From positions 2,303 to 66,302 of IMG/VR virus record IMGVR_UViG_3300023110_000034: a stretch of 64,000 nt of DNA; one strand, given 5' to 3'. Position 1 is the stretch's first letter; the number at the start of each line of letters is the position of its first letter. Under the pieces are notes generated by a model. The model was not told the origin of the DNA. It was given only the letters and a program-made list of their open reading frames with translations, and made no database searches. Below are positions 1-18,883 of the stretch, in pieces. Source of the stretch: a virus. The translations under genes and the position numbers were made by a program.

Positions 1-387
1 CTCAGAATTTTTACGCATATCATTTAATTTATGCTCAGGTATTCTGATATTACCTCTGTTAATATCAATAGCTCTGCGTATTGCACCCTTAATGCGTTTA
101 GATAGAAATGATTTTAGTGTTCTTTCAGGTTCTGTTGAATCTGTTATAACATCCCAATCAATTTTATCTACTGCATGTATTAATCCTATTGCACCCTCTT
201 GAATTAGATCATTTATAGTTAACACACCAGATGCTTGCTGTGTTGTGGAAAATTTCCTTGCTATATTTTCAACTAATTCCATGTTTTCTACTATAATTTT
301 TTCTCTATCATCAGAAATATCTCTTAACAATGTTCTGTCAAGGTCATGCTTGTATCGTACATAATTTTGTACATTATATTTCTTCAT
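1..387 (-). CDS. Sigma-70 family RNA polymerase sigma factor (runs off window edge)
   Basis: Not in the ORF track. Manual translation from ATG at 387 gives MKKYNVQNYVRY...ENMELVENIARKF...DLIQEGAIGLIHAVDKID...FLSKRIKGAIRRAIDINRGNIRIPEH, matching sigma-70 region 2 (DLIQEGxIGL..AV.KFD; IRIP). Confidence 0.9.
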   Translation of the reverse strand, partial: MKKYNVQNYVRYKHDLDRTLLRDISDDREKIIVENMELVENIARKFSTTQQASGVLTINDLIQEGAIGLIHAVDKIDWDVITDSTEPERTLKSFLSKRIKGAIRRAIDINRGNIRIPEHKLNDMRKNSE

Positions 388-991
388 TTAGTAAAAGTTT
401 TTCTTGTCTTATCTCATTTGTTATGTTTCTATATATCGTTCTGGTTGATACATTTAAAGCCTTAGCTATATTTGATATTGTGATTTTTTTATTGTTATCG
501 TGAATATACAACATTGTTTCGTAAATATCATCAGGTTCGGCTAATTTTTTTTTGCCAATGAGTTTTCCGACTATACTTAACTTCTGTGAAGTATCTAATC
601 CAGTAACTTCTTTGAATATGATTTTACGCATTTTATTTTTAGGTGGTGCGTCTAAATCACTTTCAAATACTTCTTGTACTAAATTTTGTATTGAAGCTTT
701 ACTAAGCGTAATGGTTGCAAAACCATTTTCTTTATCAGCAATAAATTCAGCTAATTCTGTAATCTGATCGTATTCTAATCTAGGATTAAGATACCATAGA
801 ACGAGCATGTGCCATTTAAATGACTTATAAGACGTTATTTTAGCCTTACTTCTAAATAACTCGTAACACTCGTACGTACCACTCTCATAAAAGTCACCCC
901 AGCTGTATGATTCAGAAGGGGTGTCAGTAATTGGTCCGCGTCGATATACGATGCGTCTTCGATGAAAATAGTCGAGTTTTCTATGCGACAT
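374..991 (-). CDS. DNA-binding protein with C-terminal helix-turn-helix
   Basis: 205-aa ORF; C-terminal ITISNIAKALNVSTRTIYRN is a typical HTH. Confidence 0.75.
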   Translation of the reverse strand: MSHRKLDYFHRRRIVYRRGPITDTPSESYSWGDFYESGTYECYELFRSKAKITSYKSFKWHMLVLWYLNPRLEYDQITELAEFIADKENGFATITLSKASIQNLVQEVFESDLDAPPKNKMRKIIFKEVTGLDTSQKLSIVGKLIGKKKLAEPDDIYETMLYIHDNNKKITISNIAKALNVSTRTIYRNITNEIRQEKLLLNEEI

Positions 992-1032
992 TAGCCTGCT
1001 ACTTATTTAATTTTATTTGCTATCGTCACACT
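984..1032 (-). promoter_or_regulatory. ~50-bp imperfect palindromic element, copy 1 (overlaps the HTH gene start)
   Basis: Minus strand AGTGTGACGATAG-(AT-rich)-GTAGCAGGCTAATGTCGCA; near copy on the plus strand at 6964-7013. Confidence 0.65.
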
Positions 1033-1117
1033 CTGGTCCGATGATTTCATAAAGGATTTCTAAATCTTCTAGTTCGGCTGGTGTGATGTGGTTTAATTGG
1101 TCTTTTGTTGCTCCCAT
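1013..1117 (-). CDS. Small hypothetical protein (34 aa)
   Basis: Manual ORF MGATKDQLNH...CDDSK, start overlapping the upstream stop codon. Confidence 0.5.
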   Translation of the reverse strand: MGATKDQLNHITPAELEDLEILYEIIGPECDDSK

Positions 1118-1320
1118 TATAATAATAATAGTTTTAAATACTTTTGGTGTTGTTTCATGCGTTTTGATATTGATTGTATCTCTTTTACTTTAGCATTAAG
1201 CTCTTTTCCTTTAAGTTCATCAATATCTTTCACTTTTTTAGTCATGCATTTATGCATATGAAAAATGTGATCTCTTACAAAATTAACGTGTTTAGTCTTT
1301 TTTGTCTTTAATTTTATCAT
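1117..1320 (-). CDS. Small basic hypothetical protein
   Basis: 67-aa ORF in a tightly packed minus-strand array. Confidence 0.6.
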   Translation of the reverse strand: MIKLKTKKTKHVNFVRDHIFHMHKCMTKKVKDIDELKGKELNAKVKEIQSISKRMKQHQKYLKLLLL

Positions 1321-1409
1321 AATTTTTCTTTTTAGTTAAACTTTTGATCGTCTCTGATATGTTTCTATAATTAGAAGCCATCAGGTGTTTATACAATTTA
1401 TGACTCATA

Positions 1410-1562
1410 TTAAAATATTGTTGTAATATCTATTATTGCCTCTGGATGGTAATATTTAAGTATGTCTTCAATTGTTTTTTCTGCAACGTGTATAGCAACT
1501 TTATTGTTAATCAGGTACTTATGCGTACCAAAGCGAGGGCAATTAATTATCAGTTCATCCAT
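1410..1562 (-). CDS. Small hypothetical protein (50 aa)
   Basis: Manual ORF MDELIINCPRFGTHKYL..., TAATG-coupled to the upstream gene. Confidence 0.55.
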   Translation of the reverse strand: MDELIINCPRFGTHKYLINNKVAIHVAEKTIEDILKYYHPEAIIDITTIF

Positions 1563-1840
1563 TACAATCCTCTTAATTTTAATTTTATCTGTCTTATTTT
1601 GTTTTTAATTATATCAGCTTTTTCATATTGTTCTTCGCCTACATATCTATTCTCAAGTTCATATAATCTTTCTAATTCATAATGAAAAAACTCTGATTCA
1701 GATACAGATGATGAATTGCCAAACTCATCATATATAACATACTGGTGTTTTGTTTCATTATTTTCTTGTGATTGCTTATCAATTAACTTTTCAAAAATTA
1801 ATTGAGCAATACGTTCTATTTCTCCGTCTGTTAAAGCCAT
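1562..1840 (-). CDS. Small protein with C-terminal UVR (UvrB/C)-like motif
   Basis: C-terminus EEQYEKADIIKNKIRQI resembles the UVR consensus E.YE.AA.IRD.I..L. Confidence 0.6.
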   Translation of the reverse strand: MALTDGEIERIAQLIFEKLIDKQSQENNETKHQYVIYDEFGNSSSVSESEFFHYELERLYELENRYVGEEQYEKADIIKNKIRQIKLKLRGL

Positions 1841-1841
1841 A

Positions 1842-2024
1842 CTATCTATTTATTAGATCCATTATTTCTTGTTTTATATTTACAATTTCTTCAGCAGCTT
1901 CAACTATTTGATCAATAGTACAGGCTTGATCCATACTTAATGATCTATTGTCATACAACCCGCCGTTAAAATTGTGTACAAACCTCCAAAGAGATTCAGC
2001 TGCTTCTAATGAATTATCACGCAT
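1842..2024 (-). CDS. Hypothetical protein
   Basis: 60-aa ORF in the array. Confidence 0.55.
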   Translation of the reverse strand: MRDNSLEAAESLWRFVHNFNGGLYDNRSLSMDQACTIDQIVEAAEEIVNIKQEIMDLINR

Positions 2025-2241
2025 TTGAAAAATTATATTGTTTTAAAATATGTTTATGTATGAACTTACCAATTGATTCAGCATATTTCATAGATAGAAA
2101 TTTATCTAATGGTACATTAAAATAATCATACTTTCTACCATTTACAAATGTAAGGCGTAGTTTGTTTAATTTATAATCATATTTAGCTTTTTTAATAGCC
2201 ATTGAATTTACTTGTAATGTTTCTTTATTTAATTTAATCAT
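2017..2241 (-). CDS. KTSC domain protein
   Basis: VNSMAI..AKYD....LRLTF.NGRKYDYFNVP...F..M..AESIGKF..KHI fits the KTSC pattern. Confidence 0.85.
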   Translation of the reverse strand: MIKLNKETLQVNSMAIKKAKYDYKLNKLRLTFVNGRKYDYFNVPLDKFLSMKYAESIGKFIHKHILKQYNFSNA

Positions 2242-2244
2242 AAT

Positions 2245-2649
2245 TTATTTAATTAAAAATTTATTTATTTTAGTTTCTAAAGCTTCAATTCTATTTAATA
2301 CTTGATCAAATGTCATATCAGCATATTCTTCACGGCCCGGTTTAATATAATAAATATCAAGGTGTTTGGCTATGCTATCATATACGTCATGCATATATGG
2401 GTCATAACGAGCCTCAATATCAAATCTTTTAAGGCCATTAATTACGGTCGCATGATCACGATTAACAAGTCTACCTATTTTAGATAAGCTTGCATACCTG
2501 CAGTATTTTCTAGCTAATTTAAAATATATAAAGCGTGCTTGTGACATTTCACGTGTACGATCTTTAATTGATATATCTTCAAGATCTAATTCTTTTTGTA
2601 CCATACGCAAGACTTTTTCAGGTCTAGCAATCTTTTCTTTTGTTTCCAT
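2245..2649 (-). CDS. DnaA C-terminal (domain IV)-like DNA-binding protein
   Basis: R..E...AR.I...LAR....SLSKIGRLVNRDHATVINGLK matches the DnaA domain IV signature; no AAA+ domain. Confidence 0.85.
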   Translation of the reverse strand: METKEKIARPEKVLRMVQKELDLEDISIKDRTREMSQARFIYFKLARKYCRYASLSKIGRLVNRDHATVINGLKRFDIEARYDPYMHDVYDSIAKHLDIYYIKPGREEYADMTFDQVLNRIEALETKINKFLIK

Positions 2650-2651
2650 AT

Positions 2652-2864
2652 TTAATAAGGTTTGTAAGTTGATTTATAAATTGAATTGTGAGTAAATTTA
2701 GTTTTATGTACTTTTTTACCGCTGAATATGATTTCACGATTGCGTGAATAATCTTCATCAGTAAATGGTTTGCAATAGCCGTGTATAGCAGTTTCAGCTT
2801 TCCATTTAGCAGCATTGCGTTTCTTTTTGTTTTCTACGTATTGTTTTAATTCTTTAATTGTCAT
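2652..2864 (-). CDS. Small basic hypothetical protein
   Basis: 70-aa ORF in the array. Confidence 0.6.
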   Translation of the reverse strand: MTIKELKQYVENKKKRNAAKWKAETAIHGYCKPFTDEDYSRNREIIFSGKKVHKTKFTHNSIYKSTYKPY

Positions 2865-3001
2865 TAGTATAAAGGTTTAGTATATTCAGGTTCAGTTTGC
2901 CAGTGTTCCATTAAATGTTCACCGGTTGAGTTATCTATATAATATGTTTCAGTACCTATTGTTATAAATACTGAATTTTCAGATCGTACATCTATAATCA
3001 T
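2864..3001 (-). CDS. Small hypothetical protein (45 aa)
   Basis: Manual ORF MIIDVRSENSVFITIGTETYYIDNSTGE..., overlapping both neighbours. Confidence 0.6.
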   Translation of the reverse strand: MIIDVRSENSVFITIGTETYYIDNSTGEHLMEHWQTEPEYTKPLY

Positions 3002-3240
3002 TTTGTTAATTGTTTAGCCATATATGTTGCATATGGGGTTGTTGTTTTCATTGGTTCAATAAGTTCAGCCATGCGTAGCCATACCCTTAGGTTGCTAATG
3101 TCACCCATAACTAATTTATAGGATAACTCAGGCCAAGCCGCATTGTGTCTGTTACGGAAATGAGTACGTAAATTTAATCTATAATGTGCTATTTTAGATA
3201 TTAGCTTTGCCTCAATTCGATCGTCAATTGGATTTGTCAT
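2998..3240 (-). CDS. Hypothetical protein
   Basis: 80-aa ORF. Confidence 0.6.
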   Translation of the reverse strand: MTNPIDDRIEAKLISKIAHYRLNLRTHFRNRHNAAWPELSYKLVMGDISNLRVWLRMAELIEPMKTTTPYATYMAKQLTK

Positions 3241-3268
3241 AGGTATTTGATTTAAAATTAATAATATT

Positions 3269-3574
3269 GCCAGCTTTATTCGGCGCTGGCTACCTAGCCT
3301 TCTTAACCGTTCCGGCTACGTCTGCCCAAGAGGGCATTGACAAACACACATAAAATGTGGTACAGAGGAGGAGGTACATGACCCTCGCTTCAACTCGAGT
3401 ATCTATTTACCCGTCGGTAATCCTCTGTAGCTTTTAATATTTTTATGATGGCGTCCCTTGTGCGGGTTCTTCAGGTAGCTAATCCTTATCCTCACCGAAG
3501 CCAACGGGGTAGAGGACCATCATAAATGTTATGCTTCTCTGGACAATGCCTTGCCACGCGGTTCTCATAACATT
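3269..3574 (-). ncRNA. Cluster of putative structured RNAs, including a CCA-ended tRNA-like element (3358-3428)
   Basis: GC-richer island with no tracked ORF and consecutive closed stems: GCCAGC/GCTGGC, TAGCC/GGCTA, TGCCC/GGGCA, TACAGAGGA/TCCTCTGTA, TTTATGATGG/CCATCATAAA, AATGTTATG/CATAACATT. Confidence 0.6.
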
Positions 3575-3578
3575 TTTG

Positions 3579-3725
3579 TTATAGTTGTTGGTTAAGTATG
3601 TAGTTTATAACTTGACTTGGTGTACCAGTCATTGTGCGTTCTTCGTCGTATAGATCTTTGAACGTTAAACTATAAAACTTTGGCTTGTGTATAGCAAACT
3701 GTGTGTTAAATTTATTACCAGCCAT
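3579..3725 (-). CDS. Small hypothetical protein (48 aa)
   Basis: Manual ORF MAGNKFNTQFAIHKPKFYSL... Confidence 0.55.
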   Translation of the reverse strand: MAGNKFNTQFAIHKPKFYSLTFKDLYDEERTMTGTPSQVINYILNQQL

Positions 3726-3726
3726 A

Positions 3727-3957
3727 TTATTTAGTTTGTGTTGTTATAATTTCTTTTTCGTTTTCAAGCTTATTAATTACGCTATGTAATTTTACTGTGA
3801 TATAGTCTACAATATCTTGTACATCAAAGCCGTCATTCCATACAGTTGGTACAAACTTTTCAAGATAGTATCTTGTGTCCCAATCAGCATTAGTTAATTT
3901 TTCAATGCGATCAATTTTGTTTTGTAAGTCTAAATAATTTTCTAATTGTGTGTTCAT
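3727..3957 (-). CDS. Hypothetical early protein
   Basis: 76-aa ORF directly downstream of the promoter motif at 3991. Confidence 0.65.
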   Translation of the reverse strand: MNTQLENYLDLQNKIDRIEKLTNADWDTRYYLEKFVPTVWNDGFDVQDIVDYITVKLHSVINKLENEKEIITTQTK

Positions 3958-3990
3958 AATATTTAATTTTAATTGTTTGTTATTCGTTAT

Positions 3991-4023
3991 TATTATCTGT
4001 TATGCTTCGTGTTTACTTTGTAA
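3991..4023 (-). promoter_or_regulatory. Early promoter-like motif, copy 1 of 6
   Basis: Minus strand TTACA-N8-ACGA-N8-AGATAATA. Confidence 0.7.
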
Positions 4024-4323
4024 TTCTTCTTCAAGATAGTTTTCAACTTCATACTCTGGTAAGTATTGTTCAAGATCGCTTACATATACGATAGCATCTT
4101 CGTCCAAATCTTTAATGCGTTCAATAATATCATCAAATGGTGGTTGATAATAATAAACATCCATATCCCATTGCATATGTATATGGTCATTAGTCATAAC
4201 GTGTACGTCATAGCTGTCTGCAGTCATATACTCACTAATTTGTAAATCTGCACTTGGTGTATAGTCTTCTGTAAATTTAGCTATGTTTAAAGCTTTTGCT
4301 AGTTGTGTGTAAATATTTGTCAT
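4000..4323 (-). CDS. Acidic hypothetical early protein
   Basis: 107-aa D/E-rich ORF. Confidence 0.65.
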   Translation of the reverse strand: MTNIYTQLAKALNIAKFTEDYTPSADLQISEYMTADSYDVHVMTNDHIHMQWDMDVYYYQPPFDDIIERIKDLDEDAIVYVSDLEQYLPEYEVENYLEEELQSKHEA

Positions 4324-4499
4324 TTTGTTACTCTTTTAATTAATGTAAATAATATTTGTTGTTTAACTTTTAATTCTAATTCGTTAAAGTCATCGCCTTC
4401 AAGTTCTTCTTCGTCAAGTTGCCAGTGTATTGTATTGTCAATGTATTCGTCAATAACTTCGATACAGTGATCAGCCATTTGTTGTACTATTGTGTTCAT
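4320..4499 (-). CDS. Small acidic hypothetical protein (59 aa)
   Basis: Manual ORF MNTIVQQMADHCIEVIDEYID...EEELEGDDF; ATGA overlaps on both sides. Confidence 0.6.
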   Translation of the reverse strand: MNTIVQQMADHCIEVIDEYIDNTIHWQLDEEELEGDDFNELELKVKQQILFTLIKRVTK

Positions 4500-4696
4500 G
4501 CTATTTCAAGATTAAGTTGTTGTGCTACGTAGTTGATATGTTTCGACGTCGTTGGACTGTGCGACCCGACGCCGGGAACATACCAATTCACCAAATGAAG
4601 TTTGTTATCTTTTATTTGTGCAACAACAGTGTCATAAGAATAAATATCGTTGCCAACCATTTTTAAGTTTTGTTTGTATCTGTCAAATGTTTTCAT
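4496..4696 (-). CDS. Hypothetical early protein
   Basis: 66-aa ORF with a YSYDT.VA...SPTTSKH pattern. Confidence 0.65.
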   Translation of the reverse strand: MKTFDRYKQNLKMVGNDIYSYDTVVAQIKDNKLHLVNWYVPGVGSHSPTTSKHINYVAQQLNLEIA

Positions 4697-4711
4697 AATT
4701 GTGTTTGTTTG

Positions 4712-4948
4712 TTATTTGTTAGTATTATCCGTTTGTTGTCGTATTAACTCTGTAATTTGTTTTTCAGTTTCTTTAATATTATATGACTGAAAGACTATAC
4801 CACCACCGTAACTTTTTGTGTGGTATTTACGGCCACCGATTTTGTTTGCCAAGTGTATAGCATTTTGATAGTCGTCTGCAATATTTAAAAAATGCACTAC
4901 ATATCTTGGATTGCCATATGTGTCGTTTTTAATTCTTGTAAATTCCAT
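4712..4948 (-). CDS. Hypothetical early protein
   Basis: 78-aa ORF: NDTYGNPRYVVHFL...GGRKYH...YGGGIVFQSYN. Confidence 0.65.
   Translation of the reverse strand: MEFTRIKNDTYGNPRYVVHFLNIADDYQNAIHLANKIGGRKYHTKSYGGGIVFQSYNIKETEKQITELIRQQTDNTNK
4723..4755 (-). promoter_or_regulatory. Early promoter-like motif, copy 2
   Basis: TTACA-N8-ACGA-N8-GGATAATA upstream of the ORF starting at 4696. Confidence 0.75.
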
Positions 4949-5044
4949 TATGATAATTCAGTTAAAATTAATGTTACACCGGTTAAGAACAGACCTAATA
5001 GAAAGCCTGTGTCGAGGTTTTGTAGTTCAAATAGTTCCATAATA

Positions 5045-5809
5045 TTATAATTTTATTTCGTCTTCTGGTTTGTATTCGTGTTTGTTTCTAGGTGGTGTTG
5101 GGTTCAGTGTTGGAGGAGAATATTTATATCCAAGTATTGGATTGATTCCGTGATTCCAAAAATCCCAAGGCATTTCTTTTTTAGTATCCATATTTAGTAT
5201 AATGTTTAATTGTTTCAGCTGATGCTTTATTGAATTGGTGTACTCGTTCACGATACTTTGGATCGGTACAATATTTTCTCATTGCTCGGGATTCTGTACA
5301 TTCACCCCAGCGACGTTCAAAGTCGTCAACTTGTTTTAGTTTTGCTTTTAGTTGTGCTTCTGTTTTCATTTTAATGTCATTGTTATTAGCTCAAATTCAT
5401 CGTTTGTTATTGTACCTTCCATTAAGGCTAGAAATTCTTTTGAGACGTCTCGTCCTGTGTATTTGTTTATTATTGTCATATTAGTTATTTATTAAATATT
5501 CTTTTGTTTCATCATAGCTCAGTGGCCAATCGTAGTATTTGTATATTCTGTAAATCTTTTCTTCTGTTGGTAGGTCAAGCGTGTTAACCCAGTCCATTAA
5601 ATTTGTGTGTGATGTGTTCATATTATATAATCTTTTTTAATTTTTTTTATTAATTCAAATCGTTGGTCAAGTAACTGTTGGTGTATAGCAAGCAATTGCT
5701 CTTGTTGGTCTAGTGATAATCCTAAGCCTTGTATTTTTAGGTCTTGTATCATATCTAGTTTACCATTTATTTCGTGTAGCCTTGTTATTTGATTTTCTTG
5801 TGTTATCAT
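5045..5809 (-). CDS. Array of five small hypothetical early genes (5045-5251, 5181-5369, 5366-5479, 5481-5621, 5618-5809)
   Basis: Abutting or overlapping minus-strand ORFs of 37-68 aa, from the track and by manual reading. Confidence 0.55.
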
Positions 5810-6018
5810 AGTCCTACAAATTTATTTATTATTTCTAATTCTGTTTTATATTCTTTTTCTTGGTCAGGGCTGAGATTATATAATCTATCAACATTATTTT
5901 TTGTTTTAACATAGTCAACTAATGTGAAGTATATTTTATCAATTTGTTGTTGTGTTAATTCTACTTTTGTGTATGTGTCTACTAAATGTTGTTTCATTGT
6001 GTTTGTTTTTATGTTCAT
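5806..6018 (-). CDS. Hypothetical early protein
   Basis: 70-aa ORF right after the motif at 6022. Confidence 0.6.
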   Translation of the reverse strand: MNIKTNTMKQHLVDTYTKVELTQQQIDKIYFTLVDYVKTKNNVDRLYNLSPDQEKEYKTELEIINKFVGL

Positions 6019-6021
6019 TTA

Positions 6022-6054
6022 TATTATCCGTTTGTGATCGTATTAAGCTTGTAG
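6022..6054 (-). promoter_or_regulatory. Early promoter-like motif, copy 3
   Basis: CTACA-N8-ACGA-N8-GGATAATA. Confidence 0.75.
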
Positions 6055-6231
6055 TTTGACATGAGAGTAATATACTTTTGTTGTGTCTATGTAGTCGTAC
6101 AGTGGTCGACGTGAGAATGTTACTCTGGTTGTACTCTTCATTGGTCGTACATAGTTAGCCATAAGGTCTTGAGTACGTTTGTTTTGTCTCTCAATTTTCT
6201 TTTTCAATTTGTTGTATGCTTCAGTAGTCAT
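6043..6231 (-). CDS. Small basic hypothetical protein
   Basis: 62-aa ORF. Confidence 0.55.
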   Translation of the reverse strand: MTTEAYNKLKKKIERQNKRTQDLMANYVRPMKSTTRVTFSRRPLYDYIDTTKVYYSHVKLQA

Positions 6232-6299
6232 AAGGTGTGTGTTTTATTTGTTAATGTTTTATTGTTTACTGGTATTAAACTAAGCCTTTGTGTGTGTTT

Positions 6300-6470
6300 T
6301 TACCATTTTTCAATAGGATTTTCAGTTATATTTTCAAATTTAGTTAACAATTTATCAATTTTAGCTTTAGCTTGTGGACTGAATCGATCGAAGTCAGGGT
6401 TGTTGATGAGGTCTTCGAGTGCCATCCAAATTATTTCAGTTTCAAAGGGAGTAAGTTGTGTAGTTACCAT
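6300..6470 (-). CDS. Small hypothetical protein (56 aa)
   Basis: Manual ORF MVTTQLTPFETEIIWMALEDL..., downstream of the motif at 6497. Confidence 0.55.
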   Translation of the reverse strand: MVTTQLTPFETEIIWMALEDLINNPDFDRFSPQAKAKIDKLLTKFENITENPIEKW

Positions 6471-6496
6471 GTGTTTGTATTTTTAATGTTCTTATA

Positions 6497-6529
6497 TATT
6501 ATCCAATTGAGATCGTGTTTAGTTTGTAA
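6497..6529 (-). promoter_or_regulatory. Early promoter-like motif, copy 4
   Basis: TTACA-N8-ACGA-N8-GGATAATA. Confidence 0.75.
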
Positions 6530-6646
6530 TTATTCTTGATCCCACCACTCATTATTGTAATAGTTTACAACATCTTGATTTGTACAAAGATTGTTATTAA
6601 TTAACTCTTTAATTTGTTTTGTGGTAAGGTTGTCAAAGTTGTACAT
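6530..6646 (-). CDS. Small hypothetical protein (38 aa)
   Basis: Manual ORF MYNFDNLTTKQIKEL...EWWDQE between two promoter motifs. Confidence 0.5.
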   Translation of the reverse strand: MYNFDNLTTKQIKELINNNLCTNQDVVNYYNNEWWDQE

Positions 6647-6671
6647 TGTATTTGTTTTTTTGTTACATATA

Positions 6672-6704
6672 TATTATCCAAATTGGTTCGTGTTAACTTT
6701 GTAA
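6672..6704 (-). promoter_or_regulatory. Early promoter-like motif, copy 5
   Basis: TTACA-N8-ACGA-N8-GGATAATA. Confidence 0.75.
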
Positions 6705-6750
6705 AAACTAAAATATTAATATTGTAAAATGTACGATCAGAGCCTAACTA

Positions 6751-6783
6751 TATTATCCAAAATAGTTCGTATTTACCACGTAA
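6751..6783 (-). promoter_or_regulatory. Early promoter-like motif, copy 6
   Basis: TTACG-N8-ACGA-N8-GGATAATA. Confidence 0.7.
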
Positions 6784-6873
6784 AACCTCAACATTAAAAG
6801 CTAAAAACATAACTGCTTGGCACTGAGCGCGTTGGGGGCTGGGGTAAAATAATTGGTTTTAGTTAAAGGGCTG

Positions 6874-6956
6874 GTTACCAGATAGTTACGTGTAATACGT
6901 TACCTCTAATTATCTAACAAAAAATTTAGGTTACCTACCGGGGTGCATTTGTTACC
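6874..6956 (+). repeat. Five GTTAC(C/G) direct repeats in the divergent intergenic region
   Basis: Copies at 6874, 6885, 6899, 6930 and 6951. Confidence 0.5.
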
Positions 6957-6963
6957 GCAAGAA

Positions 6964-7014
6964 AGTGTGACAATAGGTACTTAATATATATAATGTAGGG
7001 GGCTAACGTCGCAC
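6964..7014 (+). promoter_or_regulatory. ~50-bp imperfect palindromic element, copy 2
   Basis: AGTGTGACAATAG-(AT-rich)-GTAGGGGGCTAACGTCGCA; inverted near-copy of 984-1032. Confidence 0.65.
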
Positions 7015-7068
7015 TGTGTGTCAGATTTAAAATAAGCATGTAATAGTATATATGTTAATTAAATTCAT

Positions 7069-7995
7069 ATGGAGGTATCACAGATACGTTATGCGCAAAT
7101 AGACCCTAATGGTTTATGCAATGCAGGATGTTGGTTTTGTCCTGTAGCGTATATAGGTAATCCGAAGGAATCAATTAATCAAATGGAACCATCAGATTTC
7201 CGCAATATAATACAACAAATAGATTATTACAAAGGAGATATTGTTTCACCTGAATTTAATGGTATATATACATCCCATTATAATGAAGCATTGTTATATA
7301 GGTATTTTGAAGAAATGCTAGAAACATTGCGTGAATTTAGTCTAGGGATGGTTGTATTAACTAATGGTACAACATTAACGCCGGATAAAGTGGATATAAT
7401 AAATAAATATCCAGATGTAATATGGGGAGTATGTGTAAATGCGCCAATATGGTCAGATGCAGAGTTATTTGCAAAACGCACTAATATGAACCAAAGCATA
7501 TTTGAACGTTTAAAAATGAATGTGTCGTATGCTTATACCAATCTTAAAAATAAAAATTTATTATCTATACAGATTAATGGGCATGATCATGAGTCAGGGG
7601 CACTTAAAGGTCCTAAGTTTCCAGACATATCAGATACAGAATTAGATGAACAGGTAGCTATTGCTAAAGAAATGTTTCCAAATACTAATGTATTTAAACA
7701 ACCGCACCTTATAGATAGGGCCGGCCTTATAGACGATTATATAAGTTCATCGCCTTTTGTGCATAAAGATAAAAAAGTTGTTGGGTGTATGGGCAAAAGA
7801 GATACGGAATGGATACATGTAAATGCAAACTCTGAATTATTCCTATGCTGCAATGATTATCATATGGAACATAAATATGCTAATCTTAAAGAAACAACAT
7901 TAAAAAATGCTTGGGGCAGTATAAAACATAAAGAAGTATTACAACATGCTTGGGGTACAATATGCAATTCTTGTACTTCTGCTATATATGAATAA
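7069..7995 (+). CDS. Radical SAM enzyme with SPASM/twitch domain
   Basis: CxxxCxxC (CNAGCWFC), LTNGTTL, and C-terminal C...LCCND...CNSC. Confidence 0.9.
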   Translation: MEVSQIRYAQIDPNGLCNAGCWFCPVAYIGNPKESINQMEPSDFRNIIQQIDYYKGDIVSPEFNGIYTSHYNEALLYRYFEEMLETLREFSLGMVVLTNGTTLTPDKVDIINKYPDVIWGVCVNAPIWSDAELFAKRTNMNQSIFERLKMNVSYAYTNLKNKNLLSIQINGHDHESGALKGPKFPDISDTELDEQVAIAKEMFPNTNVFKQPHLIDRAGLIDDYISSSPFVHKDKKVVGCMGKRDTEWIHVNANSELFLCCNDYHMEHKYANLKETTLKNAWGSIKHKEVLQHAWGTICNSCTSAIYE

Positions 7996-8129
7996 TTAAA
8001 AACGAAGTACTTTTGGCACAGCATCTATATAATAAAATGCAGGAACTTAAATATAATAGATAAAACGTGATATAACAGATTATAACACATGCATGTTAAA
8101 CATATTGATTAATCATTAAAAAAACTATT

Positions 8130-8630
8130 ATGGGATCACCATTTAAAATGAATCCAAAGACACCTTTAATGAAGGCGTTGGTTGGAAAACAAAAGAACTT
8201 ACCTGAGCACCTAAAGCAGGCAATACTAGATGCACCTGCTAAAATGGATAAAGGTAAAAAGAAAGGTACTAAAAAAGATGACTTCCGCTATGAGTCTGAT
8301 ATGCCAGAAGTAATTGGTACTGCATATAGAAAAGCAGGTACTGAAAGAGTCACTGAGTATAAGAAAGGTGGTAAAACTATGAAAAAAGGTGATACCTACG
8401 AAAGAGGCGGGTTCCAAACACCAAAGAAAGTAGTTGACACTGGACGCGATGCATCGGGTAGAAAGAAAGCTGGTGAAACAGGTAAAGTAACTGTGGAGGT
8501 TAAAAAAGGTGATATTAGATTTTCTACCGGTAAGAAAACTAAAAAGAAAACCGGTGCAGGTAAATCACCTGCTAAAATGTATGGTAAGTCACCTGCTAAA
8601 ATGAAAGGCGTTAAAGGTCTTAAAAAATAA
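8130..8630 (+). CDS. Lys-rich basic protein with (S/A)PAKM repeats, possibly an internal virion protein
   Basis: 166 aa, very K-rich; APAKM, KSPAKMYGKSPAKMK. Confidence 0.65.
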   Translation: MGSPFKMNPKTPLMKALVGKQKNLPEHLKQAILDAPAKMDKGKKKGTKKDDFRYESDMPEVIGTAYRKAGTERVTEYKKGGKTMKKGDTYERGGFQTPKKVVDTGRDASGRKKAGETGKVTVEVKKGDIRFSTGKKTKKKTGAGKSPAKMYGKSPAKMKGVKGLKK

Positions 8631-8866
8631 TGCAAAAGCTTTCTCCTGAAGCGCGGCGTCGTAAGAAGGTCCGAGACAAGGCCGTTGCAATGAGCCCTCG
8701 GCGCCGTGCCATGAAAGCGGAAAACCAACGTAAGCGTAGAGCCGCTAAAAAGAATGGTAAGAATATAGACGGTATGGACTACGATCATACCACATCGTCC
8801 TTTGTATCTGCAAAAAGAAACCGCTCTGGTTTCGGCAAGGGCACTAAAATCAACAATACTAAATAA
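8630..8866 (+). CDS. Small Arg/Lys-rich protein
   Basis: 78 aa, TAATG-coupled on both sides. Confidence 0.6.
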   Translation: MQKLSPEARRRKKVRDKAVAMSPRRRAMKAENQRKRRAAKKNGKNIDGMDYDHTTSSFVSAKRNRSGFGKGTKINNTK

Positions 8867-11800
8867 TGGCTGACACTAAAATAAAAGCAGGGCAGTTCTT
8901 TGGCGTAGTAGGTCACGGAACAGATGGTTATTTCCTAATGACAAATGCAGATGGCAGTATGTCATGGTCACAGGCATCTACAGGACCATCAGTTACATCT
9001 GTTGATTATCCAGGAGATGACACCGCTGCAGATCCTGCAGGAGGACAAACAGTAGTATTAACTGGTACAAACTTTGGAAGCAGTATGACGGTTAGTATTG
9101 GTGGTACAACCGCACCTTCTGTTGCACACGACTCTAGTACGCAACTTACAATTACAACCCCTGCTAAAGCTGCTGGTGATTATGATATTGTTGTAACTAA
9201 TACTGTAACTGGTGCATCTGGTACATTTGTAAATGGTATATCATATAACGGTATTCCAACATGGACAACTCCTGCTGGTTCTTTAGGTATATTTGAATCT
9301 GAAACAACTATATCAACTATAACACTACAGGCTACAGAACCTGATGGTGGGACAATTACTTTTAATATAACCAATGGAGCATTGCCAACGGGGCTGTCCT
9401 TGACAGGTGCAAATATTGACGGTACTACAACTGCTGAATCATCTACAACATTATACAGCTTTACTATTGAAGCTATTGATGATGAAAATCAATCTACTCC
9501 AAGAAACTTCTCTATTACAGTTAATGCTTCTGAATTAACTCCATCTGAAAACTTTACAATAAATACCTATACAGGTAATGGTTCAACACAAAGCATAGAA
9601 GGTAAGATTGGTACTGCTGCTGCTTTTAATGGGAGTAGTAGTTATATATCTTTAGATTTAGATAGTTACTTTAATACTTGGGGCGATTTATCATATTCTC
9701 TTTGGTTTAATACAACCAATACAAATTATCAAAGATTTATAACAGCATTCAATTCCTCTAATTATTTAGGAAATGCGGGATTGCTTGGAACAGGAGCTGT
9801 AAATAACAACACAAGAGTTGGCGGAACTGATTATTATGGAAACGGAACTACAACAGGTCTAAATGATGGAAATTGGCATCATTTTGCTTGGGTATTAGAC
9901 AATACAAGCCATACTGTTAAAATGTATGTTGATGGAAGTTTAGAGGCTACCACAGATTATGGCTCAACACAAAGTGGTTCTTTTTCTTTAACTAATGGCG
10001 CTCTTCTTGGAATTGCACAAGATTTATCTTCTAATAGTTTCAATGGTAAAATAGACCAAGTAAGAATCTTTGACAAAGCATTATCATTAAATGAAGTAAC
10101 AACACTATACGGTGAACCAAGTAATCTATCTACTGCATCTACAACTGATATTTTTGGTGACGGCTCTGGGGTTGCTTTATATGAATTTGAAGAAGGAGCA
10201 AAAGACACTGGGGGTATATCTGGATATATTGGAAATGGTGGTACATTTAATGGGTTACAAACATCTTCTGCTTCTTATGTAGATATATCTTCTTCAACCA
10301 CTTCTACTACCTCAACTGTTTCTTTTTGGATGAACACCACTATAAAAGATTCTAATACTGGCACTATGCTTGATGCAGGCGGAGGAAGTTCAGCAAATAC
10401 AGGTTTTTCTATTGTAAGAACACCTACAAATGGTTATTTATCAGTTAATTTTACACACGGAACACCAGGTCAGAATCAAGCATTTACAGGGACAACTGAT
10501 ATTTGTGATGGTACTTGGCATCATATATCTTTAGTTATGGAGTCTGACAATACCTTTATTTGTTATTTAGATGGTGTATCTCATTTATCAGGAACAAGAA
10601 CGTATTGGACAAGTGGAGACACTCATAATTTATCAAATAATAGATTTGGTACAAATGCAGGTAGTCTTGGTGCATCTTCTTATGAAGGTAAAATAGACCA
10701 AGTAAGAATATTTAATAAAGCCCTATCATCAAGTGAAGTAACAACCTTATACGGAGAAACATCAGCATCAGCTACAAAATCAACTAAAGATATATTTGAT
10801 GATGGTAGTGGTGTTGCGTTGTATGAATTAGAGGGGAATGCTAATGATACAGTTAGAGCGATAGACAGCGGACAGAGTGCTGTTTTTAATGGGACCACTT
10901 CAATTTTTAATTTTCCTAATACTGCTTATGGAGCCTCAACAACTGTTTTTACAGTTTCAGGGTGGTTTAAACATACATCAACTGCGAATAATAGAGAGGA
11001 TATTTATTTTGGTAACGGAGCAACAGTTGGAGGTAATACAGGTTATGCTCTTTTTACAGATTATAGTTCAGGCAATATAGCTTTGTCTTTTAGAGATACA
11101 GACCAATCTCAAGTATTTTACACTTCTTCTTCAAGCATAAAAGATGGTAGTTGGTATCATTTATGTTTAACTTATAATAATGGCGCTTATGTTGTTTATT
11201 TAAACGGAGCATCTATATTAAATGGTACTTCGCCTGATTTTATAAATAATCAAACCCCTACTCACGCTACGTATATTGGGAATAGATATGGTAATACAGG
11301 TTCAGGTGCAAGTATAATAGGGGCGGTAGACCAAGTAAGAATATACTCTTCAGCATTAAGTAGTTCAGATGTAACTAACCTATACAACGAATCAAGCGTA
11401 CCAACAACAAACCTTATTGCCCACTATAAATTAGATGGTAACGCTAATGATGAAACAGGAAGCTACAACGGAACTGCAACATCAATAACATATTCAGATC
11501 CTGCAGAATACCCAACATATGACGGCACAGCAACAAATGTATCCTACGCTTATGACGGAACACCTACAAATGTAAGTTTTGTAGGAACTTCATTCCAACC
11601 GGATTTGGTTTGGATAAAGTCAAGAAGTGATTCAGACCATCACGTTCTTTTAGATTCAATAAGAGGTGGCACAAATCCACTTATGCCAAGTGGTACATCC
11701 GCTGAAATAGCAGATACAGATTATATACAATCTTTTGATTCTAATGGTTTTACGGTAAGAGTCGATACTCAAAGATTCGATTTTTCTCACAATGAAAGTG

Positions 11801-13175: not shown

Positions 13176-14741
13176 ATGGAATTTAATAATCCGAGTGAAA
13201 TTGTTAAAGATTTAAACTTTGGCGATGACGCTCAAAACAAAATAATGGCTGGAGTTGAAAAGCTCGCTGAAGCTGTTTCATCAACTCTAGGAGCATCGGG
13301 TAAATGTGTTATATATGAAGACGCACTTGGTAAACCGATTGTAACAAAAGACGGAGTGACTGTTGCGAATAGTGTGGTGCTTATGGATCCAGTTGAGAAC
13401 ATAGGCGCGACCCTCGTTAAAGAGGCAGCACAAAAAACAGTAAAGGAAGCGGGTGATGGTACTACAACTAGTACCGTCCTCGCACACTCCATTTTAAAAG
13501 AATATGTAGCTTCTAAAAAATCTGATTTAAGAAAAATTAAAGAAGATATAATTGAAGCAAGTTCTAAAGTAATTAAATATTTAGAAAGTAGCTCAATCCC
13601 GGTTAAGGACTCGATGCTAGAGCATGTAGCTAATATTTCTACAAACAATGATGTAATATTAGGTAAATTAATTGCTGATGCGTATAACAAAGTGGGTAAA
13701 GATGGCGTGGTCCTTATGGAAGAGTCTGATACTGATGAAACGTTTATAGATATTATAGATGGTGTTCAGTTTGACAGTGGTTTAAAATCACAGCATTTAA
13801 TTACAGATAAAGAAAAAAATAAAGCAGAACTTGAAAAACCGTTAATATTATTAGTTGATTCTGAAATTTCAACTATTAGAAAGATACAAGCGGTATTGGA
13901 ATATGCTATAAAAAATAAAAGATCAATACTTATTATTGGTAATCTTTCACCTCAAGTGCAATCTGCACTTATAATGAATAAGGTTAAAGGTAATATTAAA
14001 GTAAACTTTATTGATCCACCTGGTTTTTCTAACTTAAGAAGAGATATGCTAGATGACTTAGCCGCACTTACGGGTGCTACAGTCATTTCAGAGGAGTTAG
14101 GAGACGATTTAGATTTAATTAATGAATCAGTACTAGGTGAAGCACAAAAGTCCGTTACGGATGATAATAACACTGTTATAACTATTGAAGAGTTAACTAA
14201 AGAAGTTAAAGATAGAATAGATGTTATTGAAAAGCAATTAAAGGAAGAAAAAAATCCTTATTTGCTTAAAAAGCTTGAACAGCGTAAAGCAATGCTTTCT
14301 GGTTCAGTCGGAATGTTATATGTAGGCGCTGATTCTAAAATAGCACTTAAAGAAAAAAAAGATAGGGTTGAAGATGCTATTTATGCTGTAAAAGCAGCAT
14401 TAAAAGATGGTATTGTACCTGGTGCTGGTGTGGCTTTGCACAATGCGGCTGATAACATAGCTACAAACAACAGTGATGGTTATAACATACTGTTTAACGC
14501 TATTAAAGCACCTTATAAGAAAATTCTTGATAATGCTGGAATTCCTTATGAAACTGTTGTAAAAAAAGGTAGAGGAATTAATGTAATTAGCGGGAAAACT
14601 GTTAATCTTGTAAAAGAAGGTATAATTGATCCTGTGCTGGTTACAAAAACTGCTTTAAGAAATGCAGTATCTGTAGCAACAACAATTATGTCAGCGGACT
14701 GTATAATTTCTAATGTAAGAGAAGGATCATGCGGGCTGTAA
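13176..14741 (+). CDS. groEL: Chaperonin GroEL
   Basis: TKDGVTVA, AGDGTTT, GIVPGAG, GIIDP motifs; no GGM tail. Confidence 0.97.
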   Translation: MEFNNPSEIVKDLNFGDDAQNKIMAGVEKLAEAVSSTLGASGKCVIYEDALGKPIVTKDGVTVANSVVLMDPVENIGATLVKEAAQKTVKEAGDGTTTSTVLAHSILKEYVASKKSDLRKIKEDIIEASSKVIKYLESSSIPVKDSMLEHVANISTNNDVILGKLIADAYNKVGKDGVVLMEESDTDETFIDIIDGVQFDSGLKSQHLITDKEKNKAELEKPLILLVDSEISTIRKIQAVLEYAIKNKRSILIIGNLSPQVQSALIMNKVKGNIKVNFIDPPGFSNLRRDMLDDLAALTGATVISEELGDDLDLINESVLGEAQKSVTDDNNTVITIEELTKEVKDRIDVIEKQLKEEKNPYLLKKLEQRKAMLSGSVGMLYVGADSKIALKEKKDRVEDAIYAVKAALKDGIVPGAGVALHNAADNIATNNSDGYNILFNAIKAPYKKILDNAGIPYETVVKKGRGINVISGKTVNLVKEGIIDPVLVTKTALRNAVSVATTIMSADCIISNVREGSCGL

Positions 14742-14989
14742 ATAAATTTATTATAATTAAATCAATTAAGGAAGAAGTTAAACCAAACGAATCAGGTTTA
14801 ATCCTTACAGAAAAACATCAAGATGACATACGATATAGAAAAGCTGAAGTACGTTCTGTTGGTAATTATGTTGAAGGAATTGCTCCAGGGGATAACATAT
14901 ATTACGACAGACATGCTGGTTACGGTATAGACTTTGATGGTGAATACCTACAAGTCATAAAAGAACAAGATGTTGTTGTAGTATTATGA
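14729..14989 (+). CDS. groES: Co-chaperonin GroES
   Basis: 86 aa adjacent to groEL; SGLIL mobile loop, VRSVG, IKEQDV. Confidence 0.9.
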   Translation: MRAVNKFIIIKSIKEEVKPNESGLILTEKHQDDIRYRKAEVRSVGNYVEGIAPGDNIYYDRHAGYGIDFDGEYLQVIKEQDVVVVL

Positions 14990-15426
14990 GGCTAGAGTCT
15001 GATGATATTAGAAGACTTGGTCTTTTTAAATATTATAGATTAGTTAGGAAGTGGGCTTGTAAAACATATAAGCTAACTGATGGTGATCTTGAATTATTAA
15101 TACATTTTGATTGTCTTGGTCGTTTTACACGTGATGATTACATAAAAGGTACATATATACATTCTTGGGATAAACATCGCTGGGAACGATTACGTAAAAA
15201 TGGTTGGATAGATATATATATTAAAAGAAATCATACTACTGTTAAATATAACGTATATAAGGTTTCAACAAAGTGTAAGCATCTAATATCAAGAATCTAC
15301 AGAATATTATTAGGCCAAGAAGACTTACCTACAACACATAGAAATGTGTTTAATAAAAACAGAAGCTATAGCGATAAAGTATTTAATGCCGCTATAGAAG
15401 ATATGCACAAAGACAAAGAACGATAA
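14986..15426 (+). CDS. Hypothetical protein, possible winged helix
   Basis: LTDGDLELL...RLRKNGWI...YKVSTK resembles a MarR/wHTH pattern. Confidence 0.55.
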   Translation: MRLESDDIRRLGLFKYYRLVRKWACKTYKLTDGDLELLIHFDCLGRFTRDDYIKGTYIHSWDKHRWERLRKNGWIDIYIKRNHTTVKYNVYKVSTKCKHLISRIYRILLGQEDLPTTHRNVFNKNRSYSDKVFNAAIEDMHKDKER

Positions 15427-15749
15427 TGGGTTATAAAATGAAAAGCGATATGATGTCGCTAATACACGAAAGCAAACCTTCACTAAAAGAGAATTTAGCA
15501 CCTGGTGTGCACGGTGTAACATTAGATGATGGCACTATCGTTATTAATAAAAAACTTTCACCTGTACAACAAAAAGTAGCTGAATCACACGAACGTATTC
15601 ACAGAGAACAAATACTTCGTAAAGATTTAAGTTATGATGATGACTATGTATATTGGAAAGGAAGAAAGTATCCTAGAAAAGGAATGAAAGAAGGGTTTCC
15701 TAAATTAGAATGGGAAGCTGAAGCATATAGAAGACAAACAAAAAAATAA
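15426..15749 (+). CDS. Zincin-like metallopeptidase domain protein
   Basis: HExxH (HERIH) plus downstream WEAEAY. Confidence 0.7.
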   Translation: MGYKMKSDMMSLIHESKPSLKENLAPGVHGVTLDDGTIVINKKLSPVQQKVAESHERIHREQILRKDLSYDDDYVYWKGRKYPRKGMKEGFPKLEWEAEAYRRQTKK

Positions 15750-15754
15750 ACACA

Positions 15755-15889: not shown

Positions 15890-15915
15890 GCTAATCAACA
15901 ATTTAATTTAATATA

Positions 15916-16705: not shown

Positions 16706-16720
16706 TTTAAATTTTATATT

Positions 16721-17753: not shown

Positions 17754-17759
17754 CAAAAA

Positions 17760-18875: not shown

Positions 18876-18883
18876 TATAAATT

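Follow-up and report, generated by a model that had tools for sequence, protein, structure and literature searches.

Repeated 33-bp elements at the head of a small-gene array as candidate early promoters of a large group of uncultured marine phages

Many copies of information-rich early promoters precede the small, variable early genes of T4, and in the middle class of promoters of this phage a -10 element is combined with a specific box near -30 that replaces the -35 contact and depends on MotA. SPO1 (gp28) and phiEco32 (gp36) run sigma cascades in which the host sigma serves the early genes and the phage sigma the later ones, and their early promoters match the host consensus. ECF-sigma promoters have the consensus AAC (-35) and CGT (-10), 16-17 bp apart, and the promoters of N4-type virion RNA polymerases carry a short DNA hairpin. 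For the Bacteroidota, the accessible text on Flavobacterium psychrophilum promoters (PMC9723704) gives the sigma-A promoter as TTTG at -33 and TAnnTTTG at -7, names the ECF consensus as well, and reports a median 5' UTR of 24 nt. Closest to the present case are the middle promoters of phi14:2, a crAss-like phage of Cellulophaga (Flavobacteriia), which, in the accessible part of their description (10.1101/2020.03.07.982082), are repeated, extended and tripartite, with a -10-like element and an upstream block, as are the elements described below. One of them, P070, consists of TTGACT, a 17-bp spacer and TATATTTG, has an ATG within 1-2 nt of the expected start, and is attributed by the authors to host RNA polymerase.

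The window analyzed here, meaning the whole stretch of DNA under study, comprises 64 of the 66.3 kb of an IMG/VR podophage record (66,302 bp) related to Flavobacteriia phages; its host probably belongs to the Bacteroidota. A leftward array of about 25 small ORFs of 30-134 aa occupies 1013..6646 on the minus strand. Most of these ORFs lack known families, with few Pfam and PHROGs matches among them, and the array is hypervariable among related phages, each early protein being present in 1-22 of 220 related loci. After the array, this strand continues with genes for a helix-turn-helix (HTH) protein, a sigma factor, an Erf-family annealing protein and an exonuclease, and then with replication genes. 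The HTH protein (374..991, minus strand; 205 aa; Pfam HTH_11, 3.1e-6) has its helix-turn-helix at the C terminus and is present in 22 of the 220 loci; its gene overlaps that of the sigma factor by 14 nt. Only the 5' part of the sigma gene lies in the window (1..387, minus strand; Pfam Sigma70_r2 and Sigma70_r4, phrog_351). The gene extends past the window start, to a full length of 243 aa (record positions 1958-2689), and its product aligns with SigA/RpoD chains over regions 2, 3.0 and 4.

Six exact 33-bp matches to the pattern YTACR-N5-AAYACGA-N8-RGATAATA, every one of them on the minus strand, form a cluster where the array begins, beside a divergent region. The sequence-only reading had placed these copies at 3991, 4723, 6022, 6497, 6672 and 6751 with invariant spacers, and both points are borne out: the exact pattern, spacers included, matches all six, and it matched nothing in any of 100 dinucleotide-preserving shuffles. 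A relaxed 23-nt core with up to two mismatches found nine matches in the window versus 1.19 expected, the three additional ones being weak plus-strand matches within coding sequence (18599, 26396 and 26628). Over the whole record, up to one mismatch gave six reverse matches and one forward match, with none for the backwards control, and a weight-matrix scan at a score of at least 18 returned the six copies only, in agreement with the earlier impression that there are none elsewhere.

Every copy lies upstream of a minus-strand ORF and points into the small-ORF array, as expected of the promoter-like element that had been suggested, and the ATG comes 25-27 nt after the motif in four cases and 34 nt after it in the case of the copy at 3991. 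The first copy (6751..6783; weight-matrix score 28.1; predicted +1 at 6745, an A) is in tandem with the second, 79 nt upstream of it. The second (6672..6704; predicted +1 at 6666, G) would produce a 20-nt A/C-rich leader before the ATG at 6646, and the third (6497..6529; predicted +1 at 6491, G), whose upstream edge abuts the stop of ORF 6530-6646, a 21-nt leader before the ATG at 6470. For the fourth (6022..6054), the predicted +1 at 6016 (G) leaves the ATG at 6018 upstream of the predicted transcript, so that an in-frame ATG at 5997 would follow a 19-nt leader. The fifth (4723..4755; predicted +1 at 4717, A; 21-nt leader, ATG 4696) sits within the 3' end of ORF 4712-4948, and the sixth (3991..4023; predicted +1 at 3985, G; 28-nt leader, ATG 3957) overlaps the stop of ORF 4000-4323. 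The leaders predicted in the window are A-rich, 19-28 nt long and lack Shine-Dalgarno sequences.

These repeats are very probably promoters, and the genes that they would transcribe are the small, presumably early ones of a large set of uncultured marine phages: a -10-like GATAAT is combined with a purine 7 nt behind it and with ATGs where transcription is predicted to begin. All six copies in the window have GATAAT unchanged, and it includes the A at -11 and the T at -7 expected of a sigma-70 -10 element. Index 37, counted as the seventh nucleotide past the final T of GATAAT, is a purine in 99% of 269 contexts from related phages, with a T before it in 73%. In 255 contexts, an ATG falls exactly at index 37 in 68, of which 67 open at least 30 codons, and the next best position has 13. 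The prediction that transcription begins a few nucleotides after GGATAATA fits these sequences, with +1 placed six nt past the motif end from the leaderless ATGs of the relatives and transferred to the window from there, and 67 of the 255 copies (26%) would give rise to leaderless genes, with the ATG of a long ORF at the predicted start. The position of the start, roughly 7 nt after the hexamer, is read from sequence data rather than from transcript 5' ends. Four salt-marsh metatranscriptome runs match parts of 1-10000 solely as contigs of related strains (95-99% alike), from which no starts can be read, and carry-over of DNA is another possible source of these matches.

Upstream of GATAAT, conservation runs on to -22, and a TTACAA-like block lies 19-20 bp from the hexamer, which is too far for a standard -35 element with its spacing of 16-18 bp. 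The ECF arrangement is not found, since AAY and CGA are adjacent in the motif; the six copies of the window do not retain the AAC at index 4-6. An opposite-strand reading was rejected, because TAACTTTG, seen in the reverse complement of the copy at 6672, occurs in one of the six copies only and would be read antisense to every ORF. Rfam yielded no family at gathering score in the window. Two further elements, with inverted arms, lie nearby. The one at 6967..7014 (plus strand), with arms GTGACAATAG ... CTAACGTCGCAC and an AT-rich core containing TATAAT within its 48 bp, opens the rightward block of structural genes and is kept in two related genomes (G013 and G036); it is a second, different promoter- or operator-like element. 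A related one at 985..1030 (minus strand), with arms GTGACGATAGC ... GCTAATG, is directly upstream of, and overlaps, the start of the HTH-sigma gene pair and is kept in G000, G013 and G036.

The motif shares with Bacteroidota sigma-A promoters the likely host phylum, 5' leaders that measure about 20 nt and lack Shine-Dalgarno sequences, the A at -11 and the T at -7, but otherwise differs from the consensus in the accessible text of PMC9723704, as the sequence-only reading had pointed out. Compared with TAnnTTTG at -12 to -5, GATAATAT agrees at two of the six specified positions only (A at -11 and T at -7), and neither TTTG nor TTG is found near -33, where the consensus from -38 to -30 is TTACAAACT. 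Nor does it resemble any of the six promoter classes mapped in F. psychrophilum, as given in that text. Leaderless mRNAs amount to 5.5% there, versus 26% of motif copies (67/255); with so many ATGs placed at the predicted +1, leaderless expression would be much more frequent than in that flavobacterium. TAnnTTTG is not enriched in four phage genomes (in G000, 103 occurrences versus 109.6 in shuffles), and no canonical host promoter heads the array, TAnnTTTG being absent from 6650-7068. In 301 sampled Flavobacteriaceae genomes, the motif was found in six with up to one mismatch (seven matches, versus ten for the backwards control), and we therefore rejected the idea of a host regulon, there being no excess above control. 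A few Flavobacteriaceae chromosomes that lack a detectable phage-sigma homologue carry single copies upstream of genes, with an 18-20-nt leader. The genes behind them are mixed (CAP, TerB, GH20, DUF285 and small secreted proteins), and one copy stands before a CAP gene that shares 63% identity with a gene of a phage; such rare copies may be of phage origin.

Among uncultured relatives, the motif is present in at least 220 IMG/VR stretches from at least 112 contigs. Equal use of both orientations, which had been named as evidence that would speak against promoters, did not occur: copies are co-oriented within each locus, none of the 220 loci carries them on both strands, and loci found via the sigma gene alone have 359 copies on the sigma strand versus 3 on the opposite strand. 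The flanking ORFs are not conserved among the 220 loci, and GATAAT is kept in motif variants found without requiring it, such as those of L402 and G026. In cultured relatives on Flavobacteriia hosts the motif is absent, and both motif and sigma factor are absent from MW202828.1, elemoB, phi18:3, phi38:1 and Gundel_1. One near-complete genome (G036; 99%) retains the sigma factor (60% identity) and the HTH protein (62%) and has neither small-ORF array nor motif. The apparent reverse case, a motif phage without sigma (G029), was rejected, as its contig ends inside the array and the whole replication block is missing.

Set against the described systems, the T4 likeness lies in an upstream block likewise centered at -30 and in the position before small, variable early genes; the sequences are unrelated, however, and ORF, Pfam and PHROGs searches found no MotA or AsiA homologues. 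As in SPO1 and phiEco32, a sigma-70-family protein is encoded at the end of the early block. The presumed early promoters described here do not match the host consensus, and their assignment by the logic of those cascades is accordingly uncertain. The motif is not shared with phi14:2, in which 28 matches at three mismatches equal the 28 of the control. As far as the accessible text of 10.1101/2020.03.07.982082 goes, the phi14:2 promoters are middle or late, whereas ours head presumed early genes, and the TATATTTG of P070 fits the host TAnnTTTG box, which our motif lacks.

Functions other than promotion appear highly improbable, whether as operators bound by a DNA-binding protein of the phage, as signals at the RNA level or as recombination sites for cassette shuffling. 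With its 17 bp, the upstream block could accommodate a regulator site, but such a role is compatible with promoter function, and where the ATG coincides with index 37 the motif lies mostly outside the mRNA. The geometry from GATAAT to purine is that predicted for a promoter. Annealing protein/exonuclease pairs, one of which (the Erf-family protein and its exonuclease) this phage encodes, can use short homologies, and of 191 endpoints of homology blocks shared with relatives, 27 coincide with the upstream motif edge, versus 3.1 expected. Nonetheless, only two of the 191 end at the downstream edge, the motif contains no inverted repeat, and the record encodes no integrase. Promoter and gene thus move as one cassette; for the earlier idea of recombination points, this is no evidence that crossing-over happens inside the motif. 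Another very unlikely reader is a virion-borne factor or polymerase that would enter the cell together with the DNA, after the model of N4 or crAss-like phages. The candidate would be a giant protein (48494-54268; 1924 aa) that is specific to the clade: all 30 of 30 motif contigs encode it, in open frames that range from 565 to 3,817 aa and mostly span 2,200-3,800 aa. It is a protein without a tblastn match in GenBank relatives, and whose gene lies near a crAss muzzle-like gene. Also in favor are the failure to find a canonical host promoter anywhere in these genomes, the presence in MW202828.1 of both a 3,859-aa protein and another type of early repeat, one that could form a hairpin, and a motif middle that we take to resemble the T7-class promoter core, one base shorter. 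Yet DxDxD is not conserved among the giant proteins, which have no Pfam family or PDB sequence match. The conserved C-terminal 738 aa of the 1924-aa protein are predicted as an all-helical fold at low confidence (mean pLDDT 51.8) with no Foldseek match at E <=0.001, and the sole lead is a polyvalent-protein domain, LPD38 (Atlas score 0.75). Index 16-23, the counterpart of T7 -8 to -1, is the least conserved part of the motif, so a T7-like promoter with conserved -8 to -1 and G at +1 is not seen; the ATG peak fits a sigma-type +1 and not a start at GG, and the 33-mer lacks the inverted repeat of an N4-type hairpin. No RNA_pol family was found among record ORFs of at least 100 aa, and a PF00940 search of the record gave no match, its controls being equally silent.

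The clade encodes its own sigma factor, and it is conceivable, if rather unlikely, that the motif is the cognate promoter of that sigma and belongs to a middle-type class. In that case, initial transcription of the HTH-sigma pair by host polymerase would come from a separate element, for example that at 985-1030 with its sigma-70-like hexamers, and the phage sigma would then fire all motif copies. Consistent with this, sigma is encoded by 29 of 30 large motif-bearing contigs, the thirtieth being truncated; among the 37 sigma loci whose 10-kb upstream flank is complete, canonical copies are present in 35 and a variant in one other, while sigma-bearing contigs number at least 490 in all; the motif does not fit host sigma-A; the five phages named above lack both; and the HTH-sigma pair has its own conserved upstream element. 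In the SigA alignment, the phage sigma has K-R, G and R at the positions that correspond to W433/W434, Q437 and T440 of E. coli sigma-70, which would suit a non-standard -12/-13 such as GG. On the other hand, the co-occurrence is that of one clade and possibly one evolutionary event, and G036 keeps sigma and HTH without any motif, so its sigma must have other targets. In locus L419, the ATG of sigma is the predicted +1 of a motif copy, which would make sigma there dependent on the motif, so that under this reading the circuit would need its own product and would have no evident primer. The late regions of six genomes yielded nothing that resembles the motif, and k-mer enrichment in 163 of their upstream regions gave no clear late or sigma-dependent motif, only leftover GGATAAT. 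The co-variation of motif and sigma-like module that had been proposed as a check was not seen, since variants of the region 4.2 helix do not track motif variants, a weak test given that the helix was not extracted in many loci. A literature search on phage-encoded sigma factors and promoters in flavobacteria found nothing.

The reading that we prefer, at roughly even confidence, is that host RNA polymerase holoenzyme recognizes the motif before any phage protein is made. Each 33-bp copy would be a promoter of sigma-70-family geometry with GATAAT at -12 to -7 and transcription from the purine six nt past the motif end, and the 17-bp upstream block (consensus TTACAAACTAAATACGA, -38 to -22) would supply extra specificity. 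The copies would drive cassettes of small, fast-evolving early genes, whose mRNAs would be leaderless in many relatives. Host holoenzyme would read them at the start of infection, and the later genes would be reached once the phage sigma, whose gene lies at the opposite end of the array, redirects the polymerase. Recognition before sigma is made is favored by the location of sigma, which is downstream of the array in all loci examined (in each of the 35 loci whose upstream flank is complete, it follows a motif copy at a distance of 0-5,320 nt), by the start of sigma at the predicted start of the motif in L419, and by the sigma factor kept without motif in G036. We count in favor of host polymerase as the reader the lack of a canonical host promoter at the array head, the chromosomal copies in genomes without a phage-sigma homologue, and the transcription of the T7 A1 promoter in vitro by purified Cellulophaga baltica RNA polymerase, as stated in the accessible text of 10.1101/2020.03.07.982082. 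Against it count the poor fit to the flavobacterial sigma-A box (2/6), the rarity of the motif in host genomes (6/301), which makes it no general host element, and its absence from cultured relatives on Flavobacteriia hosts. The different early repeat of the sigma-less MW202828.1, and thus lineage-specific early elements, argue for a phage-borne specificity factor. The need for such a factor, as originally claimed, therefore receives support from that repeat and from the shared presence and absence of motif and sigma, and is opposed by the gene order, L419, G036 and the lack of co-variation.

Transcription signals of Bacteroidota phages are almost unmapped, and gene-expression tools for marine Flavobacteriia are scarce. 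The present element is compact (33-44 bp), has a predicted start base, is conserved in hundreds of contigs of uncultured phages and precedes hypervariable early genes, among which host-takeover and anti-defense functions are usually encoded. It marks early cassettes in metagenomes, is a candidate part for a reporter or expression system, and allows a clear test of how a phage programme starts with a promoter outside the host consensus. It is possible, although we consider it doubtful, that no host sigma-A-type promoter is used at any stage by this large clade of Bacteroidota phages, with its hundreds of contigs, its early cassettes being expressed through a phage-borne factor that reprograms the host core. 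That factor would be the phage's own sigma in a self-priming circuit or an injected protein, and many of the mRNAs would be leaderless. If this is true, the few copies in Flavobacteriaceae chromosomes would mark host genes that are switched on only when such a phage arrives.

The pattern YTACR-N5-AAYACGA-N8-RGATAATA matches the window at 3991, 4723, 6022, 6497, 6672 and 6751, in all six cases on the minus strand. It matched in none of 100 dinucleotide-preserving shuffles of the window, and no further copy lies in the remaining 2.3 kb of the 66,302-bp record, of which the window covers 2303–66302; therefore, the six exact same-strand repeats of the sequence-only reading are exact as written, with pattern scan, shuffles and whole-record scan in agreement. 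A 23-nt relaxed core with up to two mismatches gave three extra weak matches on the plus strand, in long coding regions (1.19 expected).

The motif is a clade-wide element. In IMG/VR, the exact pattern occurs in at least 220 stretches from at least 112 contigs, many of them 59–72 kb long, and none of the 269 distinct contexts of the matches listed has copies on both strands of one locus. When loci were collected solely by the gene for a phage-encoded sigma-70-family protein, relatives of which are encoded in at least 490 stretches, the 80 loci kept held 359 motif copies on the strand of the sigma gene versus 3 on the other. Full genomes carry 6 to 22 copies, every one in the early block, and no conservation is seen in the ORFs behind them: any given early protein of this phage occurs in only 1–22 of the 220 loci among the matches listed. 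Positions left free in the search are also conserved, the consensus of the 269 contexts of matches listed being T-TACAAACTAAATACGA, eight A/T-rich bases, GGATAATA, then TAAAT and a purine. In one relative (G007), early-block copies occur at either end of the contig, with about 63.8 kb between the two sets, which differ by a few bases, and another (G014) likewise has copies and the sigma gene at both ends; these doubled ends could reflect long terminal redundancy or assembly of two strains. One copy that also matches well at the free positions was found in a single-cell genome labelled Prochlorococcus, on a 63,985-base contig (L298) as long as the genomes of these phages; the contig probably comes from a clade member sorted together with the cell and is therefore no evidence of host.

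With the T of TAC as index 0, GATAAT occupies index 25–30. A purine stands seven bases beyond its final T, at index 37, in 99% of the 269 contexts of matches listed, with T at index 36 in 73%. An ATG stands exactly at index 37 in 68 of 255 such contexts, and in 67 of them it opens a frame of 30 codons or more; at any other position, long-ORF ATGs number 13 at most. Index 35 has an ATG in 64 cases, but 38 of those frames close within three codons and long ORFs follow in just 7. These patterns are most simply explained if index 37 is +1, in which case a quarter of the cassettes would be leaderless. The predicted +1 positions in the window (6745, 6666, 6491, 6016, 4717 and 3985) are all purines, and the predicted leaders to the next ATG (19–28 nt) are near the median 5′ UTR of 24 nt given for F. 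psychrophilum in the accessible part of PMC9723704.

The record is a podophage-like genome. Its rightward block (7069–55518, plus strand) holds lysis, tail-fibre, GroEL/GroES, terminase, portal, capsid-type and crAss-muzzle-like genes and that of a 1924-aa protein. The leftward block (from about 6650, minus strand) comprises about 25 small ORFs, then genes for a DnaA-C-like HTH protein, a 205-aa HTH protein, the sigma protein, Erf and an exonuclease; if the record is circular, it continues into primase/helicase, thymidylate synthase, MazG and ribonucleotide reductase (64000–55550). Accessory genes include a radical-SAM/SPASM gene at the head of the rightward block (7069–7995), GroEL (13176–14741), GroES (27851–28450) and, inside the replication block, a CAP-family (cysteine-rich secretory) gene (60626–61165). 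The large terminase matched 87 phage records in GenBank; the host genus is named for 86 of them and is always Flavobacterium, Cellulophaga, Tenacibaculum or Maribacter (32–46% identity), and the nearest match is the uncultured record MW202828.1 (64%). None of 73 genes has a Shine-Dalgarno core in front of it, against 4.8 expected, and A makes up 52% of the upstream regions; A-rich gene starts lacking Shine-Dalgarno sequences are described for Bacteroidota in the accessible parts of PMC9723704 and PMC6847099. Because of these gene starts and the hosts of the terminase relatives, the host is likely a member of the Flavobacteriia.

Among described promoters, the tripartite middle promoter of phi14:2 comes closest; it fits the host box, whereas the motif does not, and the phi14:2 sequence is absent here. 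The sequence-only reading had set the motif apart from the Bacteroidota consensus, and this is borne out: with GATAAT placed at −12 to −7, it agrees with the flavobacterial sigma-A box TAnnTTTG (−12 to −5) only at −11 and −7, and it matches none of the six promoter classes mapped in F. psychrophilum, as set out in the accessible part of PMC9723704. It falls outside the Bacteroidota sigma-A, ECF, T7-like and N4-like classes and lacks standard −35 spacing. Canonical TAnnTTTG boxes are not enriched in a related genome (G000; 103 versus 109.6 in shuffles), two-box host promoter patterns are at or below chance in four phage genomes, and no canonical host box heads the small-ORF array. Judged from sequence, the motif appears to work like a phage early promoter.

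That the phage's own sigma (243 aa; record 1958–2689, window −344 to 387, minus strand; regions 2, 3.0 with an invariant RIPEHK, and 4) reads the motif has perhaps one chance in a few. Of 30 large motif contigs, 29 encode it and the other is truncated; it is undetectable in cultured relatives without the motif; and its alignment to SigA puts K-R, G and R at the putative −12-reading positions of E. coli sigma-70. MW202828.1 (L452), without motif and sigma, carries another repeat, a perfect 16-bp palindrome (GTGTCGTTAACGACAC) about 16–25 nt before 7 of 21 gene starts inspected (14500–20000, plus strand), and one more, degenerate copy. However, all of 35 loci have the sigma gene downstream of the motif array, and in one (L419) the predicted +1 of a motif copy coincides with the sigma ATG. 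A 99% complete relative (G036) keeps sigma and HTH at 60–62% identity, yet has no motif and no small-ORF array; nothing motif-like was found before late genes in six genomes; and co-variation of the motif with the sigma module, a test the earlier reading had named, was not seen, the region 4.2 helix variants (extracted in only part of the loci) not tracking motif variants. In addition, Cellulophaga baltica RNAP transcribes a sigma-70-type promoter in vitro, according to the accessible part of 10.1101/2020.03.07.982082. For these reasons we favor the host holoenzyme at time zero, to which we give about an even chance, although the poor agreement with the sigma-A box and with the F. psychrophilum classes of PMC9723704 counts against it.

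An injected polymerase, with the 1924-aa giant protein (48494–54268, plus strand) as candidate, is an improbable reader. This protein is clade-specific, its orthologues being open frames mostly of 2,200–3,800 aa and reaching 3,817 aa, and the centre of the motif resembles what we take to be the T7-class promoter core; however, the segment matching that core is the least conserved part of the motif, with spacing one base off. Moreover, the protein has no conserved DxDxD, no family match and no structural match for the part folded, which is predicted at low confidence to be all-helical. Only the C-terminal ~680 aa are well conserved among orthologues (44–72%), an acidic run (DDEDDD-like) recurs in giant proteins, even in a 3,859-aa protein encoded by MW202828.1, and the Atlas lead is the polyvalent-protein domain LPD38 (score 0.75).

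A second conserved element has GTGAC(A/G)ATAGC-type inverted arms that flank an AT-rich core containing TATAAT-like hexamers. One copy stands at the head of the rightward structural block (6967–7014, plus strand) and another overlaps the start of the HTH–sigma gene pair (985–1030, minus strand); the element recurs in four relatives (G013, G026, G021 and G036). It is perhaps a promoter plus operator for a dimeric regulator, with the 205-aa HTH protein as candidate. In the divergent intergenic region (6850–6960), several short repeats with GTTACC (GGTTACCAG, CGTTACCTC, GGTTACCTACC, TGTTACCGC) sit in a G+C-richer stretch separating the two gene blocks, a possible origin or regulator-binding region.

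Alignment of window 3001–7100 to all fetched viral loci gave 191 alignment ends, 27 within 5 nt of the motif's upstream edge (3.1 expected), 2 at its downstream edge and 31 at 14 other ORF boundaries (7.2 expected). Promoter and gene appear to be inherited together as a cassette. The earlier suggestion that the repeats are recombination points holds insofar as homology ends at their upstream edge, but there is no sign of crossing-over inside the motif; short-homology exchange is plausible, since the phage encodes an Erf/exonuclease pair. RNA for the region comes from four metatranscriptome runs, as contigs only. A 338-bp G+C-rich gap in the A+T-rich array (3241–3578, minus strand) has the region's highest RNA-contig depth in three runs (bins 3007–3674: 13.8, 19.7–19.9 and 14.7–15.0), a fold z-score of −2.2 and no Rfam family; the matching place in G013 has a tRNA-like T-arm sequence. 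The gap is a candidate phage non-coding RNA.

A scan of one bacterial genome per species found 90 stretches with the motif. Those with multiple copies belong to phage contigs that were assigned to MAGs of several phyla; among them, a 117-kb Flavobacteriaceae contig has two clusters separated by about 62 kb. Single copies occupy intergenic DNA of several Flavobacteriaceae chromosomes (contigs L265, L294, L318, L330, L295/L305, L314, L337 and L293), before CAP, TerB-like, GH20 and small secreted-protein genes, with ATG at index 55–57 in three; in one genome, promoter and gene 5′ end are duplicated. Some lie a few hundred nt from a tRNA gene, and four have further sequence in common (ACGAGAG ... 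GGATAATAGATAAAACTTAAAAT). No phage sigma homologue was detected at E ≤0.001 in five Flavobacteriaceae genomes with chromosomal copies, and the motif is not family-wide (6 of 301 genomes matched versus 10 control matches). Because one gene behind such a copy is 63% identical to a phage CAP gene, the chromosomal copies may stem from phages; each could mark a cassette captured from a phage or a host gene that responds to phage.

No cultured phage in the collection searched carries the motif, and no publication on this promoter class was found in the literature on flavobacterial phage-encoded sigma factors and promoters. Our analysis suggests that the motif represents a well-defined, widespread and unstudied promoter class.
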